NCBI GenBank assembly: GCA_027492795.1
Contig: JAPUEB010000035.1
Coordinates: forward strand, 63,221-127,220
Direction of reading: 5' to 3'
DNA from: Chryseobacterium sp.
GTDB lineage: Bacteria > Bacteroidota > Bacteroidia > Flavobacteriales > Weeksellaceae
DNA length: 64,000 nt
Positions within the stretch are counted from its first letter, which is position 1. Every line of letters begins with the position of its first letter. The notes beneath the pieces were generated by a model, which was not told the DNA's origin, ran no database searches, and worked only from the letters and a program-made list of their open reading frames with translations. Below are positions 13,150 through 40,980 of the stretch, in pieces. The position numbers and the translations under genes were made by a program.

Positions 13150-16100
13150 TCAGGAAACAATATTAATGATTTTTTTCGGAACAATAATTACTTTTTTCGG
13201 TGAATTTCCAGCCAGTTGATTCTTTACCCTTTCATCACTCATCGCTGCCTCTTCTATTTGTTTGGCATCAAAATCTGCCGGAAGCGCCAATTTGAAACGC
13301 ATTTTTCCATTGAAACTTACCGGATATTCTATTTCATCTTCCTCCAAATAAGATTCATTTAAGATTGGGAAAGGCTCAAATTCAACACTTGTTTCATGGC
13401 CAAGCAAACTCCACAATTCCTCGCAAATGTGTGGTGCGTAAGGAGAAATGATGATTGCTAAAGGTTCTAAAATTTTTCTTTTGTTGCATTTTAGCTTTTG
13501 AAGTTCGTTTACGGCAATCATAAATTGCGAAACGGAAGTGTTAAAAGAAAAATGTTCTATATCAAAAGTAAATTTCTTGATTAAAGTATGTAGAATTTTG
13601 TACTCCTCTTTCGTTGGTTCCTCATCTGAAACTGAAAACGTATCACCATCGAAATACAGGTTATAGAATTTCTTCAAAAATCCGTAAACTCCGCTTAAAC
13701 CTTGCGTGTTCCAAGGTTTTGACTGTTCCAAAGGTCCCAGAAACATTTCATATAAACGCAGACAATCTGCACCGTATTCTTCGCAGATATCGTCGGGATT
13801 GACGACGTTGTATTTGGATTTGGACATTTTTTCGACTTCTCTTTCAGTAATGTATTTTCCCTCTTCCAAAATAAATTCTGCATCTGCGAATTCCTTTCTC
13901 CAATTTTTGAATTTCTCAATATCCAATTCATCGGAAGTTCCTTTTAATAAAGAAACATCTACGTGAATTTTTTGGAAAGAATAAGTACCGGGAAATAATT
14001 CTTTATTAAAATGACTAATATTGTCTTTAAATAATATTTTTTCAATCTCACCCCATATTTCACGATCGTATTTCCCTAATACTTCATTTTGTTTTAAATT
14101 AAATTCTAATGTTTCCTGAGATAGCTCTTTACCCTTAATTATTGGTCTTACTGATTTAAAATATTTAATTAATCTAGGATCAACATATTTATTTAACACA
14201 ATATGCTCTAAAGCTCCAAAGTCATTTTCCTTTGACGGAATTCTGTAATTAACCACTAAACGATAAACAAACGCACTCATTCCCAAAATCATTCCCTGAT
14301 TAATCAATTTTTTGAAAGGCTCTTCCTGATGGATGTAACCTCTGTCCTTCAAAAACATATTCCAAAAACGGGAATACAGCAAATGTCCTGTTGCGTGTTC
14401 GCTTCCGCCAATATACAAATCAACCTGTCCCCAATAATCTGTTAAATTTTTATCCGCAAAATTTTCAGAATTTTTCGGATCCATATATCTTAAAAAATAC
14501 CACGAACTTCCAGCCCAACCCGGCATTGTGGAAAGTTCAATGGGAAATATCCTCTCCCCAACCCTCTCCAAAGGAGAGGGGGGCGGAACTACCTTTTCAG
14601 AAAGCTCGTCCCAATACCACGCTTTAGCGTTTCCAAGTGGCGGATCGCCGTCTTCGGTTGGCAAATATTTTTCAACTTCTGGAAGTTCCAAAGGAAGCGC
14701 AGAAACTGGCAAAGTGTAAGGCATTTCATCTTTATAATAGACAGGTACTGGTTCTCCCCAATATCTTTGGCGTGAAAAAATAGCATCGCGCTGACGGTAA
14801 TTCGTTGTTCCGTGACCAATTCCGCGGTTTTCTATTTCGTCAATGATTTTCGTTTTGGCGGTTTCATAATCCAATCCATCCAAAAATTCTGAATTTACAC
14901 AGACAGAATCTTTGGAATCGTACGATTCTTCCTGAATATCATTATCATTTTTAATGACATTTACGATGTCCAAGCCGAATTTTTTCGCAAATCTGTGGTC
15001 GCGTTCGTCGTGTGCAGGAACTGCCATTACAGCACCAGTTCCGTAACCCATCAAAACATAATCGGAAATATAAATTGGAATTTCTTTTTCTGTAAAAGGA
15101 TTGATTGCATAACTTCCCGTGAATGCTCCGGAAACGGTTTTCACATCCGACATTCTGTCGCGCTCGGTTTTTTTGGAAGTTTCTTCTACATATTTTTCAA
15201 CTTCCGCTTTTTGTGAATCGGTTGTTATTTTTTCAACCAAAGGATTTTCTGGTGCCAAAACCATAAATGTTGCGCCGAAAATAGTGTCGGGACGAGTTGT
15301 GAAAACGGTGATCACATTCCCCCTTTCCCCCAAAGGGGAGAGCTGTGGCAAATTATTCTGGTTGTATTGTGGTTGATTCTCTGGGTGGATTGTGGATATT
15401 TCTTGGACTTCTGATTTTTTTTCTACAAAATCTGGTCTTGATTCTAACTTTACTACAATTTTTTCGATAACATTTTCATTATCACCGATTACTTCCTCAT
15501 TTCTGAATCTAACTACTTCAAAGCCTTCAGATTCCAAAATTTTCGTTCTTTCTTCATCTGAAATTTGTTGCTCCTCCTCATCGTGGTAACCGCCATCAAC
15601 TTCAATAATTAATCTTTTTGATAAACACACAAAATCAACAATAAAATTGTCAATTAGGTGTTGTCTCCTGAATTTATAATCTAATTTTTTAGATTTTAAT
15701 TGCTCCCAAAGAATACTTTCTGCCACAGTTGGATTATCTCTATTTTCCTGTGCTTTTTTAATTAATAGTGCAGAATTATTTCCTCCTGTTAAATATCCAA
15801 ATTTTTGAGCATCACTTTTTAAATCAGCATTTTTTAAAGACTCATTATTAGATTCATTTTTTAGAGACTCAATATTAGATTCATTTTGTAGAAATTCATT
15901 ATTAGAGACATTCTCCCCTTTGGGGGAAAGGGGGAATTTAACCTGCGCTCCCATCGATTTCCCAATCCAATATTCCTGCGAATCTTTCAACGGTTGTGGC
16001 CAATCGATTTTTTGTAAACCTTGCAATAGTCTTTCAGAATAGGCGGTAATTCTCATACTCCATTGCATCATTTTTTTCTGAAAAACTGGGAAGCCGCCAC

Positions 16101-16800
16101 GTTCAGATTTTCCGTCTTTTACCTCATCATTTGCGAGAACTGTTCCTAATGCAGGACACCAATTCACAGTTGTTTCTGCTCGGAAAGCCAATCTGTAATT
16201 CAATAAAGTATCTTGTTTATCGAGTTCTGAAGCGTTGTTCCATTCTTCTGCCGTGAAATTTAATTTTTCGGTTTCTGCAGCGTGAAGATTTTCCGTTCCG
16301 TGTTCTTCAAAATATTTGATTAAAGTAGAAATCGGTTCTGCTTTATCCGTCGTTTTATTGTACCACGAATGAAATAATTCAATAAAAATCCATTGCGTCC
16401 ATTTGTAATACGATGCATCGGAAGTTCTTACTTCGCGATTCCAATCGAATGAAAAACCGATTTTTCTTAATTGTTCTTCGTATCTGGTAATATTTTGTTC
16501 GGTGGTAATTGCAGGATGTTGACCGGTTTGAATGGCGTATTGTTCCGCAGGAAGTCCGAAAGAATCGTAACCAATCGGATGCAAAACATTAAATCCTTGA
16601 TGCCGCTTAAATCTCGCATAAATATCGCTCGCAATATAACCAAGCGGATGACCAACATGAAGCCCCGCTCCTGAAGGATACGGAAACATATCCAAAACGT
16701 AGAATTTTGGTTTATCTGTTGCGTCAGAAGTTTTATAAGTTTGGTTGTCTTCCCAATATTTCTGCCACTTTTTTTCTATCTGCTGATGATTGTAGAACAT
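13150..16800 (-). CDS. leuS: Leucine--tRNA ligase, about 300 aa longer than usual because of in-frame insertions
   Basis: HIGH-type motif (GLHVGHPLGY), TTRPDT editing-domain motif, KMSKS, and a full-length continuous ORF of 1216 aa. Confidence 0.9.
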   Translation of the reverse strand: MFYNHQQIEKKWQKYWEDNQTYKTSDATDKPKFYVLDMFPYPSGAGLHVGHPLGYIASDIYARFKRHQGFNVLHPIGYDSFGLPAEQYAIQTGQHPAITTEQNITRYEEQLRKIGFSFDWNREVRTSDASYYKWTQWIFIELFHSWYNKTTDKAEPISTLIKYFEEHGTENLHAAETEKLNFTAEEWNNASELDKQDTLLNYRLAFRAETTVNWCPALGTVLANDEVKDGKSERGGFPVFQKKMMQWSMRITAYSERLLQGLQKIDWPQPLKDSQEYWIGKSMGAQVKFPLSPKGENVSNNEFLQNESNIESLKNESNNESLKNADLKSDAQKFGYLTGGNNSALLIKKAQENRDNPTVAESILWEQLKSKKLDYKFRRQHLIDNFIVDFVCLSKRLIIEVDGGYHDEEEQQISDEERTKILESEGFEVVRFRNEEVIGDNENVIEKIVVKLESRPDFVEKKSEVQEISTIHPENQPQYNQNNLPQLSPLGERGNVITVFTTRPDTIFGATFMVLAPENPLVEKITTDSQKAEVEKYVEETSKKTERDRMSDVKTVSGAFTGSYAINPFTEKEIPIYISDYVLMGYGTGAVMAVPAHDERDHRFAKKFGLDIVNVIKNDNDIQEESYDSKDSVCVNSEFLDGLDYETAKTKIIDEIENRGIGHGTTNYRQRDAIFSRQRYWGEPVPVYYKDEMPYTLPVSALPLELPEVEKYLPTEDGDPPLGNAKAWYWDELSEKVVPPPSPLERVGERIFPIELSTMPGWAGSSWYFLRYMDPKNSENFADKNLTDYWGQVDLYIGGSEHATGHLLYSRFWNMFLKDRGYIHQEEPFKKLINQGMILGMSAFVYRLVVNYRIPSKENDFGALEHIVLNKYVDPRLIKYFKSVRPIIKGKELSQETLEFNLKQNEVLGKYDREIWGEIEKILFKDNISHFNKELFPGTYSFQKIHVDVSLLKGTSDELDIEKFKNWRKEFADAEFILEEGKYITEREVEKMSKSKYNVVNPDDICEEYGADCLRLYEMFLGPLEQSKPWNTQGLSGVYGFLKKFYNLYFDGDTFSVSDEEPTKEEYKILHTLIKKFTFDIEHFSFNTSVSQFMIAVNELQKLKCNKRKILEPLAIIISPYAPHICEELWSLLGHETSVEFEPFPILNESYLEEDEIEYPVSFNGKMRFKLALPADFDAKQIEEAAMSDERVKNQLAGNSPKKVIIVPKKIINIVS
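14549..14583. repeat. Short palindromic element (CCTCTCC-n-CCCTCTCC-aaa-GGAGAGGG) inside the leuS coding frame
   Basis: atcctctccccaaccctctccaaaggagaggg. The same 32 nt with 1 mismatch occurs intergenically at 47769-47800. Confidence 0.8.
15316..15937 (-). mobile_element. TIR-bounded cassette carrying a DUF559 (Vsr-like PD-(D/E)XK) endonuclease domain, in frame within leuS
   Basis: Perfect 26-bp inverted repeats: attccccctttcccccaaaggggaga at 15316-15341 and its exact reverse complement at 15912-15937. The interior encodes ESILWEQLKSKKLDYKFRRQHLIDNFIVDFVCLSKRLIIEVDGGYHD...GFEVVRFRNEEV (about 15455-15725). Confidence 0.8.
15830..15910. repeat. 3 x 27-bp tandem repeat inside the leuS cassette
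   Basis: Units at 15830-15856, 15857-15883 and 15884-15910. They encode (E[SF]L[KQ]NESN[NI]) x3. Confidence 0.8.
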
Positions 16801-21668: not shown

Positions 21669-22294
21669 TGGAGTACAGCAAAGAATTCAAACAGGCAATT
21701 TCCAATTTTTCATCGCTTGAAAAAGACAGGCTGATTTTCAGGTTGTTGAAGAAAGACAAAATTCTTTCCGAAAAATTATATTTTGAATTAATTGATCCCG
21801 AAACTGCGGATGAAAAACGAAACCATCTTGAAAATAACATTAAAGATAAGTTCGAAAAACACTATCGAGAGGTGAAAAACGCCAAATATTTCCTGATGCT
21901 CATTCGTGGAGTTTCGGGCGATATTACCCATCACGTAAAGGTAACTTCCGATAAATTCGGCGAAATTTATCTCAATTTATTTTTGGTGAATGAAAGTTTG
22001 AGTCAAAAAAATGCATACACAAACGCACGTTTCGATGATGTGTACAAGGTGTATATTTATTGCCTTAATAAAATCTTCAAATCTCTTACTTTAATCAAAA
22101 AAATTGATGAAGATTACTGGATGGATTTTGATGAAATTCTTGAAAAAATTCTTGAAAAAATCTTGTCGAACAACCATCTTCCAAGACTTTGCATTAATAA
22201 TGGTTTGGATTTCAACTGGTTTAAAACCGAAAACATCCCCAATGACATTGCGGATATTTTGCGGGATATAAAAAATCAAGGTTTTTTGAAATAA
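21668..22294 (+). CDS. Hypothetical protein
   Basis: 208-aa ORF. Its start overlaps the upstream stop (TGATG). No motif recognised. Confidence 0.55.
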   Translation: MEYSKEFKQAISNFSSLEKDRLIFRLLKKDKILSEKLYFELIDPETADEKRNHLENNIKDKFEKHYREVKNAKYFLMLIRGVSGDITHHVKVTSDKFGEIYLNLFLVNESLSQKNAYTNARFDDVYKVYIYCLNKIFKSLTLIKKIDEDYWMDFDEILEKILEKILSNNHLPRLCINNGLDFNWFKTENIPNDIADILRDIKNQGFLK

Positions 22295-23526
22295 AGTTCC
22301 TGCATTTTCTTCAAAATAATTTCCGTAGAATTTGGCTGTGAATTGACAAAATGAGCCGCATTTTTACCCATTTCTTTAATTATTTCGGGAGTTTTCATTA
22401 ATCCAAGCAACTCATTTCCGGCAAGAAATTCATCATCGAAAGATTTTGCACCTTTTTCGGCAATCAGCGCGTCTGCTTCAGGATTTTTTCGATAATGATT
22501 TCCAAAAAACACCGGAATTCCAAAAGTGGCTGCCTCCAAAATATTATGAAGTCCAGCTGAATGAAAACCACCGCCAATAACGGCAAGATCTGCGTAAGAA
22601 TAAAGTTTGGAAAGGAGACCAATGCAATCTACGATGAGTATTTGAGTAGCTGAATGGTTTAGTGGTTTAGCGGTTTGCAATTCGCTGTAAAGTAGTGCGC
22701 TTGGAAACAATTGGTGTAAAATTTCTACTCTTTTTAAATCATGCGGCGCGATGATGATTTTTAGGTCGGATTTTTTGGCTAAAATTTGGGCAATTCGTTC
22801 TTCTGCCTCCCAAGAACTTCCAAAGACAACGGTTTTTTGTCCGTTTTTATATTCATCAATAAAATCTACAAAATTATCACGCTCGCGAAGCTGTTTTACA
22901 CGGTCGAAACGAGTATCTCCTGCTGTGGAAGACTGCATTAAGCCAATGGTTTTTGCCAATGCGGAAGAGTTTTTGGTTTGATGAAAAAACCAGTCGATAT
23001 TTTTTTTCAGTTGCTCCGTAAACCACGAACCATACACTTTAAAGAAGATCTGTTTTTCGTAAAAAAGTGCTGAAATCACGTAGGTTTTTGCGCCATTTTT
23101 TTTCAAAAAATCCAAAAGATTGTACCAGTAATCATATTTTACCGTGAAGAAAATATCGGTTTGAAAATTCGACGCAAATTCAGAAATCCATTTGTTCAAA
23201 TCGAAAGGAAGATAGCAAACCACATCTGCAATATGATTTTTCTTCACCACATTTTCGTAACCGGAAGGCGAGAAAAAAGTAATGAGAATCTTGTGTTGCG
23301 GATGTTTCTCCTTCAGTTTTTCCAAAACCGGAAGTCCCTGTTCATATTCGCCCAAACTTGCAGCGTGCATCCAAATCACTTTGTCGTTTTTTGAAAATTT
23401 CTCTTTCACACGCTCGCAACTTTGCCTTCTTCCAGCCAAACCGCGCTTCAATTTATAGTTGAAAGCCGCCCCGATTTTGAAACCGAAAATCATTAAGGAA
23501 ATGAATATGTTGTAGAGGAATTTCAA
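22276..23526 (-). CDS. waaA: 3-deoxy-D-manno-octulosonic acid (Kdo) transferase
   Basis: 416 aa. WMHAASLGEYEQGLPV motif and a GT-B C-terminal half. Apparent TTG start. Confidence 0.85.
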   Translation of the reverse strand: MKFLYNIFISLMIFGFKIGAAFNYKLKRGLAGRRQSCERVKEKFSKNDKVIWMHAASLGEYEQGLPVLEKLKEKHPQHKILITFFSPSGYENVVKKNHIADVVCYLPFDLNKWISEFASNFQTDIFFTVKYDYWYNLLDFLKKNGAKTYVISALFYEKQIFFKVYGSWFTEQLKKNIDWFFHQTKNSSALAKTIGLMQSSTAGDTRFDRVKQLRERDNFVDFIDEYKNGQKTVVFGSSWEAEERIAQILAKKSDLKIIIAPHDLKRVEILHQLFPSALLYSELQTAKPLNHSATQILIVDCIGLLSKLYSYADLAVIGGGFHSAGLHNILEAATFGIPVFFGNHYRKNPEADALIAEKGAKSFDDEFLAGNELLGLMKTPEIIKEMGKNAAHFVNSQPNSTEIILKKMQELYFKKP

Positions 23527-23569
23527 GGTTGATGTGCTGATTTTTGATTTTTGATATACTGATTTTTTG

Positions 23570-23600
23570 CTCTCGCAGATTTGGCTGATGACGCAGATTT
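23570..23600 (+). repeat. CTCGCAGATTT-type 31-nt repeat, copy 1
   Basis: ctctcgcagatttggctgatgacgcagattt. Confidence 0.8.
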
Positions 23601-23710
23601 TTGCCCAATAAAAATTTTAATCTTACAAATTTATTCTACGATATTCTCTTTAAACACAAATATTTTCTACTAATAATCTAATCTTTAGCCAAATTCACAT
23701 TTTTTTTCGA

Positions 23711-24187
23711 TTAATTATCCTTTGTTTCAATCGCAGTTTTTTCTTTTCTACCATTTCCTAAAAAAATTAACAAACCTATAATTCCCAAATATAAAAGTCC
23801 GATTAATAAACCTGCTGGAAAACTCAACTCATCTTTTTTCTGAAGCGGAGCCTGAACATTTTGATAACTTATAAACGCAAAAATCGACATTACAATAACC
23901 GTAAAAATCTGCAAAAACATTTTTAAAGATTCTGTATTTTTCTTCATATAATCGGGAAGATTGATCAACTTCGGGTTTCTTTGGAGAAACATCAAGAATA
24001 CGAAAAGTGCGGTAGCAATTCCACATTCCAGAAAAATTAGACTTTTTGAGCCAAAACCATCCGCTTTTCCGCTGCCATCAAAATGTGTTGGAATAATTTC
24101 AGGCAATTTCGAAAAATGAATCGCTGGATAAACCCAAATAAAAATTAAAAGTGATAAACTCAAAAAATTTACAAAATTTGTTTTCAT
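23711..24187 (-). CDS. DUF1648-like membrane protein
   Basis: 158 aa, 4 TM, N-terminal ..LPEIIPTHFDGSGKADGFGSK. Confidence 0.6.
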   Translation of the reverse strand: MKTNFVNFLSLSLLIFIWVYPAIHFSKLPEIIPTHFDGSGKADGFGSKSLIFLECGIATALFVFLMFLQRNPKLINLPDYMKKNTESLKMFLQIFTVIVMSIFAFISYQNVQAPLQKKDELSFPAGLLIGLLYLGIIGLLIFLGNGRKEKTAIETKDN

Positions 24188-24189
24188 TT

Positions 24190-24220
24190 CTCTCGCAGAT
24201 TTTGCTGATTGCGCAGATTT
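24190..24220 (+). repeat. CTCGCAGATTT-type repeat, copy 2 (direct with respect to copy 1)
   Basis: ctctcgcagattttgctgattgcgcagattt. Confidence 0.8.
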
Positions 24221-24222
24221 AA

Positions 24223-24606
24223 TTATTCTTCTAAATTATTGGCGATTCTTTTTATGGAATCCAAAATACTTGTTGTGTTGAAATTCACTAAAATTCCCAA
24301 TTTCTTGTTAGAAAGTTTTAGATAGGTATTGAGTTGCTTATAATGAATGTCTTCAAGATTTTTCACGGATTTTATTTCTATAACGACTTTATCTTCAACT
24401 AAAATATCCATTCTCAAATTACAATCAAAAACTATGTCATTATAAACAATTGGAATGTCAATCTCCGATTTTACTTCCAAGCCTAAATCTTCCAATTCAT
24501 AAACTAAGACTTTCTGATAAACAGACTCCAGTAATCCGGGACCTAATCCATTGTACACATTAAATATGGCTTTCCTTACAAGATAAGAAATTTCATTTTC
24601 TTTCAT
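24223..24606 (-). CDS. GxxExxY protein (PD-(D/E)XK nuclease-fold family)
   Basis: 127 aa. ..GPGLLESVYQKVLVYEL..., DILVEDKVVIEIKS, LVNFN. Confidence 0.85.
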   Translation of the reverse strand: MKENEISYLVRKAIFNVYNGLGPGLLESVYQKVLVYELEDLGLEVKSEIDIPIVYNDIVFDCNLRMDILVEDKVVIEIKSVKNLEDIHYKQLNTYLKLSNKKLGILVNFNTTSILDSIKRIANNLEE

Positions 24607-24627
24607 ATTTGTGATATAATAAAATTA

Positions 24628-24658
24628 AAATCTGCGTAATCCGCCAAATCTGCGAGAG
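24628..24658 (-). repeat. CTCGCAGATTT-type repeat, copy 3 (inverted)
   Basis: The reverse complement ctctcgcagatttggcggattacgcagattt matches copy 2 at 28 of 31 positions. Confidence 0.8.
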
Positions 24659-24660
24659 CT

Positions 24661-25362
24661 TTAAAAAACTCGTTTCACAAAACGCAATTTATGCGTATGT
24701 TTTTTCAAATCATTACTATAAATCCCCGATGAATCCAAGGAATCCAAGCGTACTTTTCCAAATGCGTGAATTACTTCATAAGCATTCAGCATAATTCCAA
24801 CGTGGTTTATTTTTCCTTCCTCGTTTTCAAAAAAAGCCAAATCTCCGGCTTCACTTTCGCCCAAAAAATCAATTACTTCGCCGGTTTCAGCCTGTTTTTC
24901 AGCAGTTCTTGGCAAAACAATTCCATGCACTTTATACACCAACTGCACAAAACCATCATCATCCACACCAAAAAAACTTCTTCCGCCCCACAAATAAGGC
25001 ACATTCAGGAATTTTTTAGCAGTCTCAACTATGCTTTCTCGTAGATTTTCAGTTTTAAGAACTTTTTCTGTCGGAAAATCAACTTCGGAACCGATGGATA
25101 AAAGACTTCTTCCCTCTTTCAAATCAAAAACTCCGAAAGGTTCTTCAACTAAATATTTTGTGGGAATTTCCTTGATTGGATGAAGATGATTGGTGTTCGT
25201 CCAACCTTTCGTGCCGTCGAAATCCATTTTTATTTTTGAAAAACTTCCATTATTTTCCAAAATTTCGCAGGTTTCGCCGTAAAGCATTTGCGAAATCATT
25301 TCACTCTGTTCCGAATTTTCTTTTCGCAGCGGCGAAATCAGAACGTGGCATTGTGCAATCAT
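24661..25362 (-). CDS. C40 (NlpC/P60) family peptidase with N-terminal SH3-like domain
   Basis: 233 aa. ..YLWGGRSFFGVDDDGFV.. and ..GDLAFF...INHVGI.. motifs. Confidence 0.8.
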   Translation of the reverse strand: MIAQCHVLISPLRKENSEQSEMISQMLYGETCEILENNGSFSKIKMDFDGTKGWTNTNHLHPIKEIPTKYLVEEPFGVFDLKEGRSLLSIGSEVDFPTEKVLKTENLRESIVETAKKFLNVPYLWGGRSFFGVDDDGFVQLVYKVHGIVLPRTAEKQAETGEVIDFLGESEAGDLAFFENEEGKINHVGIMLNAYEVIHAFGKVRLDSLDSSGIYSNDLKKHTHKLRFVKRVF

Positions 25363-25374
25363 TTATTTAGATTC

Positions 25375-25413
25375 AGATGTTAGATATCAGATTTCAGACA
25401 TCAGATATCAGTT
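25375..25413. repeat. Simple CAGAT(A/T)T-type tandem repeat tract
   Basis: ttagattcagatgttagatatcagatttcagacatcagatatcag. Confidence 0.6.
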
Positions 25414-25472
25414 TTTATAATTTTAAAATGATAGGAAAAACTCAATCACCCTCAAACTCTCCCACTCTCAAA

Positions 25473-26120
25473 CTACTTTCTGCGCAAAAGGTTCACTCCG
25501 TCGCGCAAAGGTAATATTAGATTTTCAAAATCTTCGTCTTTGGCTATGATATCGTTCAGTTCTTTAATTTTTTTTGTGGAAAGCTGTTTCGGATTTTCGT
25601 CCAAAACTTTTCCGTACCACAACACATTGTCAAAAATGATTACAGAACCAGATTTTATTTTTGGCTTGATTAAATGAAAATATTCCACATAATTTTCCTT
25701 ATCCGCATCGATGAATACGAGGTCGAAAATCTCATTCGTTTCTTTCAGAAAATCTTTCGCGTCCTGCAAACGGAAATCTATTTGAGAAGAAAACTCACTT
25801 TCCGCAAAATATTTTTTGGGAATGTAAGTCAAATCTTCATTCACATCCAACGTAATTAATTTTCCATTTTTTGAAAGTCCTTCTGCCATACAAAGTGAAG
25901 CGTAACCGGTAAAAGTTCCGATTTCGAGGATTTTCTCCGGCTTCAAAATTTTGGAAATAATGGAAAGCAATCTTCCCTGTTGATAACCGGAAATCATGTG
26001 CGGTTGCGTGGTTTTTTGGTAGGTTTCGCGACGCAGTTTTTTCAGAATTTCGGGTTCTGTGGAAGCGTGATTTTCCAAATAGCGGTCCATTTCCGGACAG
26101 TTTTCTTCAAAAAAACTCAT
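25473..26120 (-). CDS. Class I SAM-dependent O-methyltransferase (caffeoyl-CoA OMT-like)
   Basis: 215 aa. ILEIGTFTGYASL SAM-binding motif and FDLVFIDADKENY. Confidence 0.85.
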   Translation of the reverse strand: MSFFEENCPEMDRYLENHASTEPEILKKLRRETYQKTTQPHMISGYQQGRLLSIISKILKPEKILEIGTFTGYASLCMAEGLSKNGKLITLDVNEDLTYIPKKYFAESEFSSQIDFRLQDAKDFLKETNEIFDLVFIDADKENYVEYFHLIKPKIKSGSVIIFDNVLWYGKVLDENPKQLSTKKIKELNDIIAKDEDFENLILPLRDGVNLLRRK

Positions 26121-40873: not shown

Positions 40874-40888
40874 TTATTTTCTTTTTTT

Positions 40889-40980
40889 TCACAGATGTCA
40901 CAGATTTACACAGATTTTAATGTGATATATTTTAGAAACTTTTTTCTGTGAGAATCTGTGAAATCTGTGAAATCTGTGAG
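40889..40980. repeat. Inverted repeat of CACAGAT(T)T units immediately downstream of the protease gene
   Basis: Left arm tcacagatgtcacagatttacacagatt (40889-40916). Right arm tctgtgagaatctgtgaaatctgtgaaatctgtgag (40945-40980). Confidence 0.8.

Follow-up and report, generated by a model that had tools for sequence, protein, structure and literature searches.

A GxxExxY gene between inverted arms of a dispersed repeat in Chryseobacterium: a possible PD-(D/E)XK nuclease with cognate repeats

A 127-aa gene of the GxxExxY family (TIGR04256; Pfam PF13366, PDDEXK_3) in a Chryseobacterium sp. genome is tightly bracketed by inverted arms of a repeat that is dispersed between the genes of the same genome, and across related genomes the type of arm covaries with the clade of the protein. 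We propose, with a probability of roughly one half, that gene and arms together constitute a nuclease with cognate repeats, comparable to the RAYT–REP and Ssn–NTS systems and based on a minimal Cas4/RecB-like PD-(D/E)XK enzyme. Plain coordinates refer to the window, the whole 64,000-nt stretch of DNA that was analysed; the source genome (G000) comprises 2.96 Mb in 46 contigs with 36% G+C, and the sampled Weeksellaceae include Halpernia, Cloacibacterium, Kaistella and Chryseobacterium.

The gene lies in a run of genes that are all encoded on the minus strand and separated by tiny gaps, with the following features:

25473-26120, minus strand: O-methyltransferase gene
24661-25362, minus strand: NlpC/P60 peptidase gene
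24628-24658, minus strand: 5' arm (copy 3), 2 mismatches in the pattern search; on the gene strand CTCTCGCAGATTTGGCGGATTACGCAGATTT
24607-24627, minus strand: 21-nt inner spacer between 5' arm and ATG, taattttattatatcacaaat
24223-24606, minus strand: GxxExxY (PDDEXK_3) gene, 127 aa
24190-24220, plus strand: 3' arm (copy 2), inverted relative to the 5' arm, 3 mismatches in the pattern search
23711-24187, minus strand: DUF1648 gene
23570-23600, plus strand: copy 1, a lone third arm in the DUF1648–kdtA gap, 0 mismatches in the pattern search
22276-23526, minus strand: kdtA/waaA

The three 31-nt copies reported in the initial annotation were recovered at these positions as the only matches of a pattern search in the window (0 expected from 100 shuffles), and reverse-complementing copy 3 brings 28 of its 31 positions into agreement with copy 2. 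The inverted copies enclose the GxxExxY gene as closely as had been described, with 21 nt from arm to ATG and 2 nt from stop codon to arm. The outer TCTCGC end of the 5' arm lies 2 nt past the NlpC/P60 stop codon, an arrangement repeated at the upstream stop codon in the relatives G015 and G024, and the outer end of the 3' arm lies 2 nt ahead of the DUF1648 ATG. The 21-nt spacer, the sequence of which varies among the cassettes of the same protein clade (clade A), may be the site of the gene's own expression signals. A chance origin of the repeat was rejected: none of 100 shuffles gave even one match, and the GxxExxY gene ranks 17th of 2501 crudely called genes for bracketing by inverted repeats (score 47; median 17, 99th percentile 40).

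Copy 1 repeats copy 2 in the same direction, that of the 3' arm; it lies 110 nt past the DUF1648 stop codon, is followed by 43 nt to kdtA, and forms with copy 3 the better inverted pair (33 nt, 94% complementary). The direct copy had been interpreted as enclosing the DUF1648 gene together with copy 2. It does so by position, but DUF1648 is a resident gene: its synteny is conserved in relatives that lack arms, where it is ancestral, and the third copy is therefore a lone arm and not part of a second cassette.

Other repeats occur in the neighbourhood. Between the third arm and the kdtA start (23529-23567) are two 17-nt direct repeats, TTGATGTGCTGATTTTT and TTGATATACTGATTTTT, with a 22-nt period. 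Directly upstream of the NlpC/P60 start (25372-25406) are about five ATCTGA/TCAGAT units; since this array is similarly placed in G015 (L002), it is conserved and is no relic of a cassette arm. Right after the methyltransferase stop codon, at about 25440-25472 on the minus strand, is a lone arm of TTTGAGAG/GGGAGAG units, a type that also brackets a PF05635 gene at C35:182425-182820. Beside hypF (40887-40972), a gene-less inverted pair of CACAGAT units has 28-nt arms (89% complementary) and a 30-nt loop; in other genomes, arms of this type accompany GxxExxY proteins of a sister clade, and they flank none of the five GxxExxY genes of the source genome.

The 127-aa protein matches TIGR04256 with 133.4 bits (cut-off 35; positions 2-115 of 116) and PF13366 with 134.6 bits (cut-off 22; positions 2-117 of 117); PDDEXK_3 is its sole Pfam match, with no Y1 or GIY-YIG domain. 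The family motif is present as G24-L-L-E27-S-V-Y30, with D67, E77 and K79 as catalytic residues. Across 34 homologues the latter three are invariant and E27 is at least 90% conserved, a pattern in the sequences that favours a functional nuclease. Searching the PDB by sequence gave no significant relative; with the AlphaFold2 model (pLDDT 94.9), the best Foldseek match in the PDB was Cas4 SSO0001 (4ic1; E 4e-4, TM 0.51), other top matches being the AdnAB nuclease domain (6ppj) and lambda exonuclease (1avq). The modelled structure thus places the protein, as a prediction, in the RecB/Cas4/lambda-exonuclease branch of the PD-(D/E)XK fold. Cas4, the AdnAB nuclease and lambda exonuclease are enzymes that act on single strands or DNA ends.

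Behind its TCTCGC end, each arm carries three 9-nt units made up of GCAGATT and two variable bases. In the consensus of 45 genomic copies (TCTCGCAGATTTtGCaGATT..GCAGATT) the TCTCGC end and the GAT cores are near-invariant, and the two bases between units vary freely. Genome-wide, this repeat family (family A) has about 48 copies by profile search and 45 by a degenerate pattern. All 45 lie between genes, while a crude gene call assigns about 85% of the genome to coding sequence. The arms occur singly or as close inverted pairs. In all nine close inverted pairs the outer ends point outward, the same topology as in the cassette, and a single adjacent pair is direct; with four arm families taken together, 103 of 104 inverted pairs face outward. 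Family-A pairs 150-230 nt apart also enclose elements of other families, namely a CACGAAT hairpin and GATTCCTACGGAATGAC elements (C17:78856-79089, C18:87435-87719 and C11:93419-93619 in G000), the repeat families of this genome being nested in one another.

In 19 of 45 cases the outer end of a family-A arm lies no more than 15 nt from a gene boundary; for the inner end this is so in 1 of 45. Such placement, like the one-stranded flanking genes with their tiny gaps, would be expected if the arms were signals for expression or RNA processing (for example an RNase III stem that frees the nuclease mRNA from the operon transcript, operators, terminators or promoters), with the dispersed copies serving the expression of host genes and no mobility involved. 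The predicted RNA pairing of the arms across the 384-nt ORF (-118 kcal/mol, z = -4.5) fits the same explanation, as does the presence of PF05635 genes in bracketed cassettes, PF05635 being the classical content of the intervening sequences that RNase III excises from 23S rRNA. We nevertheless regard this explanation as very improbable, because it accounts neither for the match between arms and protein clade nor for the rapid gain and loss of arms between genera (both below), because the invariant catalytic triad favours a working nuclease, and because a simple terminator scan found none at the arms. A simple promoter scan similarly found nothing specific at the arms, and an Rfam scan of the window at the gathering thresholds returned only a tRNA, with no match at the arms. 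RNA-level effects are compatible with the nuclease reading, in which they could explain the tolerance of arms, not their origin.

The genome contains five GxxExxY genes. The initial annotation had proposed to test how many genes of this family are flanked by the 31-nt repeat, and had named paralogues lacking it as the observation that would refute its suggestion; family-A repeats are in fact absent from the other four (0/4), and with only one of five genes carrying the repeat, the idea that it flanks every GxxExxY gene is discarded. A connection of the family with repeats survives in another form, since three of the paralogues lie between arms of other dispersed families and the fourth between weak, locus-specific ones:

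C11:33482: GxxExxY gene, arms GCCACGAATGCACGAAT, at least 104 genomic copies, mostly as hairpin pairs with a 6-nt loop
C10:22065: GxxExxY gene, arms AACCACAAAAGTCACAAAAG, about 160 copies, pairs about 100-125 nt apart
C30:28947: GxxExxY gene, CGCAAAG-type units, about 19 copies
C10:13574: GxxExxY gene, family-D arms, weak and locus-specific

The family-D arms fall within the range of shuffled sequence and have no dispersed copies in the genome. Of the five GxxExxY genes, four are thus each enclosed by a different unit-repeat family (about 45, at least 104, about 160 and about 19 copies), and in the ranking of 2501 genes by inverted-repeat bracketing three of the five take places 3, 7 and 17 (P = 2.6e-6). 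The paralogues diverge from one another and differ in their arms, with one gene per clade. In family C, 49 gene-less elements have 79% identity to the ORF-stripped cassette of that family and 78% identity among themselves, from which it follows that the ORF occupies the centre of an otherwise ordinary family member.

Among the top 28 bracketed genes were also three GIY-YIG genes (Ssn-like, 102-106 aa), six Y1_Tnp genes (RAYT-like) and nine genes for PF05635, the '23S rRNA intervening sequence protein', all with their own repeats; ten of these proteins were run against Pfam and the other counts come from reading their sequences. Examples of bracketed small genes in G000 are C11:70869-71189, C24:159990-160310, C35:182425-182820, C41:7480-7833, C24:204376-204810 and C35:177842-178294. 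Because RAYT-like and Ssn-like genes are bracketed in the same genome, the design has known working precedents there. The arms of the PF05635 genes are likewise arrays of short tandem units, and their link to the gene looks as undescribed as that of the GxxExxY arms. A cassette in leuS had been put forward as another small PD-(D/E)XK-fold gene framed by inverted repeats. The inverted repeat is present (perfect, 26 nt, G/C-rich; 15316-15341 and 15912-15937), but it brackets an in-frame domain of the DUF559 family (Vsr-like; residues 349-455 of the 1216-aa leuS product, window 13150-16800), so that the example differs in family, is read in frame and has unrelated arms.

The association between arm type and protein clade was evaluated on a tree of 82 GxxExxY proteins from 34 Weeksellaceae genomes. 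With a crude classifier that left 37 of 84 loci unlabelled, the arm-unit class changed 34 times on the tree against 45.2 times for shuffled labels, and none of 200 shuffles gave a value as low; the ATTAAG class was confined to one branch (7/7). Twelve clade-A cassettes from at least four contexts conserve only the TCTCGC end and the GAT cores at 9-nt phase, their spacers and flanking DNA being unalignable. Among homologues with 48-60% identity, from Bacteroidales, Chitinophagales, Cytophagales and a gammaproteobacterial MAG, C[GA]CAGA units were found in the arm orientation in 15 of 38 cases versus 2 of 38 in the opposite orientation, and below about 48% protein identity the arm unit changes. 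A stricter unit count within Weeksellaceae gave a weak contrast (4/16 versus 4/67). Furthermore, at least five family-A arms are present in all seven genomes with a clade-A gene (median 29) versus 12 of 54 without one (median 0; Fisher P = 1.2e-4, with relatedness not corrected for). Part of the covariation between arms and clades reflects shared descent.

The order methyltransferase–NlpC–(DUF1648)–kdtA is conserved in about 25 Weeksellaceae genera, in most of which the GxxExxY gene is absent from this locus. Clade-A proteins with TCTCGC-type arms (clade support 100/99) were found at the following sites:

After NlpC: source genome, Halpernia frigidisoli and G058
Before NlpC: G015, G024, G051, Kaistella haifensis, two Chryseobacterium and a Cloacibacterium MAG
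A third site: six Chryseobacterium species
A fourth site: G007

The cassette occupies the NlpC/P60–DUF1648 gap in the source genome, the NlpC–kdtA gap in two genera and the methyltransferase–NlpC gap in several. The nearest relative, G015 (NlpC 79% identical), has its cassette before NlpC, and its NlpC stop codon overlaps the DUF1648 start as ATGA, leaving a clean empty site for the source insertion; the gap before NlpC in the source genome has no family-A arm, and the DUF1648–kdtA gap of G015 has no arm. Similarly, within one genus G007 has the gene and three arms, and G068 a lone arm between the same flanks (73-77% identical). Empty sites in relatives, which the initial annotation had suggested looking for, thus exist in these two forms.

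Whole units in different gaps, an intact empty site in G015 and a filled/empty pair within a genus would be natural products of an autonomous mobile cassette, that is, a tiny transposon or homing element moved by its own nuclease, with the gene-less pairs as MITE-like derivatives; the arm pairs do have the topology of the cassette, and the gene-less family-C elements correspond to a cassette minus its ORF. Several observations make this rather unlikely. Each genome carries a single gene copy per clade. In the clade-A tree, sequences cluster mostly by site (six Chryseobacterium sharing one, support 98/99; Kaistella, G051 and FF12 another, support 99/97), which implies rare relocation and mostly vertical inheritance, with few moves over family-level divergence; the tree is compatible with one or several origins of the position after NlpC. 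No target-site duplication is readable at the four filled/empty sites compared; at the cassette junction (tttttTAAAG/CTCTCGC...GCGAGAG/AAATG) a possible AAA duplication is indistinguishable from the A/T-rich background. The empty site in G068 retains a lone arm, and the sole other contig found by an exact-protein look-up shows no difference in context or in any of the 4540 aligned bases. What is left of the minimal mobile cassette suggested at the outset is a unit that behaves as one cassette at several sites, relocated only rarely within clade A.

Between genera the arms turn over quickly, the gene being mostly vertical. A pattern search counted 45 family-A arms in the source genome, 5 in G015 and 12 in G024, and in a comparison of four orthologous gaps with the nearest relatives the gene-less arms are insertion polymorphisms. 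A pair of arms on C9 begins 2 nt past a stop codon where the G015 gap measures 12 nt, arms on C17 begin 3 nt past a stop codon where the G024 genes overlap, and an arm on C11 is one of several repeat elements in a gap that in G015 and G073 contains nothing but a plain terminator hairpin. One orthologous gap (L159:1960-2440 versus L163 and L164) contains a different unit-palindrome in each of three genera (GCAGATT and CACGAAT pairs in the source genome, GTACAAWG in G015, GGAAGWTG in G024), and intergenic gaps of this kind seem, from their contents, to be shared landing sites.

If such gaps are general landing sites, the GxxExxY gene could be a passenger: the repeats would be spread by the host or by RAYT-like machinery, and the gene would land or survive in their loops without recognizing the arms. 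Arms are indeed plentiful in a genome without the gene (51 family-A arms in G068, which has no clade-A gene), and the unrelated PF05635 genes lie between similar arms. Random capture, however, would not yield an arm type that tracks the protein clade across genera, contexts and orders, and family-A arms accompany the clade-A gene in 7 of 7 genomes; we judge the passenger explanation improbable. Because the arm sequence tracks the protein clade, the gene, for which a role as cargo had initially been suggested, is probably not passive cargo.

The reading we prefer, a nuclease with cognate repeats, would work as follows. The 127-aa protein would recognize the arrays of units typical of its arm family, in the arms next to the gene as well as in the approximately 45 dispersed copies. 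It would cut at or near these arms, with the conserved outer end as the probable site and single-stranded or hairpin/cruciform DNA as the probable substrate. Lone arms and arm pairs would be gene-less forms, the gain, loss or upkeep of which depends on the enzyme acting in trans. The gene itself persists as one copy per clade per genome, inherited mostly vertically and rarely relocated, with fast turnover of the arms. What the sequences show directly is the anatomy, the dispersal, the covariation of arms with protein clades, the differences in site between genera and the intact catalytic residues; binding, cutting and any influence of the protein on the spread of arms are inferred. Counting against this reading are the many arms in genomes that lack the clade-A gene, G068 among them, the lack of a readable target-site duplication, the share of the covariation due to descent, the loci left unlabelled by the classifier, the weak stricter unit count and the chance-level arms of C10:13574. 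A wider formulation, which we offer tentatively and consider doubtful, is that GxxExxY proteins are nucleases specific for arrays of 8-10-nt units, with arm–gene–arm as the autonomous form and lone arms and pairs as non-autonomous forms that spread by cutting at hairpin or single-stranded arms and repair of the break from another copy; together they would constitute an undescribed class of elements, with PF05635 as a parallel guild beside RAYT and Ssn.

Of the known systems with a comparable design, Ssn proteins are GIY-YIG single-strand nucleases associated with NTS/SRM repeats, for which cleavage of the protein's own repeat has been shown, and Ssn homologues are each flanked by their own repeat variant (PMC11893778). 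The likeness consists in a nuclease gene of about 100-130 aa that is flanked on both sides by a genome-wide multicopy repeat (PMC11893778). The fold is different (GIY-YIG, cd10448, in Ssn; PD-(D/E)XK here), as is the repeat, a hairpin in NTS and unit arrays in the GxxExxY arms; the three Ssn-like genes with their own repeats lie elsewhere in the source genome.

REPtrons combine a RAYT gene with REP/REPIN repeats (PMC3733652, PMC5581495, PMC8049555). Shared with the GxxExxY arrangement are a small single-copy enzyme gene flanked by inverted repeat copies, the intergenic dispersal of the repeat as singlets and inverted doublets, a separate repeat family for each gene paralogue, a mostly vertical gene with a dynamic repeat population, and copies located just past stop codons. 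However, RAYT is an HUH/Y1 (IS200-like) transposase and GxxExxY a Cas4/RecB-like PD-(D/E)XK protein; REP sequences are short imperfect palindromes with a GTAG/CGTC end, whereas an arm is a TCTCGC-ended array of three 9-nt units and is not palindromic; and true RAYT-like genes with hairpin repeats form a separate guild in the source genome.

With insertion sequences and MITEs the cassette shares terminal inverted repeats around one small gene and the many gene-less pairs with the same ends and topology, the gene-less element being a cassette minus its ORF. Unlike an insertion sequence, it contains no recognized transposase family, shows no readable target-site duplication at its filled and empty sites, and is present with one gene per genome, with no near-identical copies that would point to recent bursts. 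The nine PF05635 genes of the source genome are similarly bracketed by inverted arrays of short units, but PF05635 is an unrelated four-helix bundle without nuclease motifs, and its link to the arms is equally unexplained. Homing endonuclease genes differ in that the GxxExxY gene stands free between genes, with no intron or intein; of the GxxExxY empty sites, that of G068 keeps a lone arm and that of G015 none.

The very common family PF13366/TIGR04256 has no known function and appears as 'Unknown' in a 2012 survey of the PD-(D/E)XK superfamily (PMC3424549). Our literature search found no paper linking GxxExxY/PF13366 to repeats, and no description of such a nuclease–repeat partnership. As the arms provide a concrete candidate substrate for each protein clade, oligonucleotide assays like those performed for Ssn could test the function directly. 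If GxxExxY proteins are indeed unit-array-specific nucleases, a large part of the short intergenic repeats of Bacteroidota genomes would be accounted for, the repeat-partner design would gain a third enzyme fold, and the proteins may offer compact nucleases with a readable specificity.
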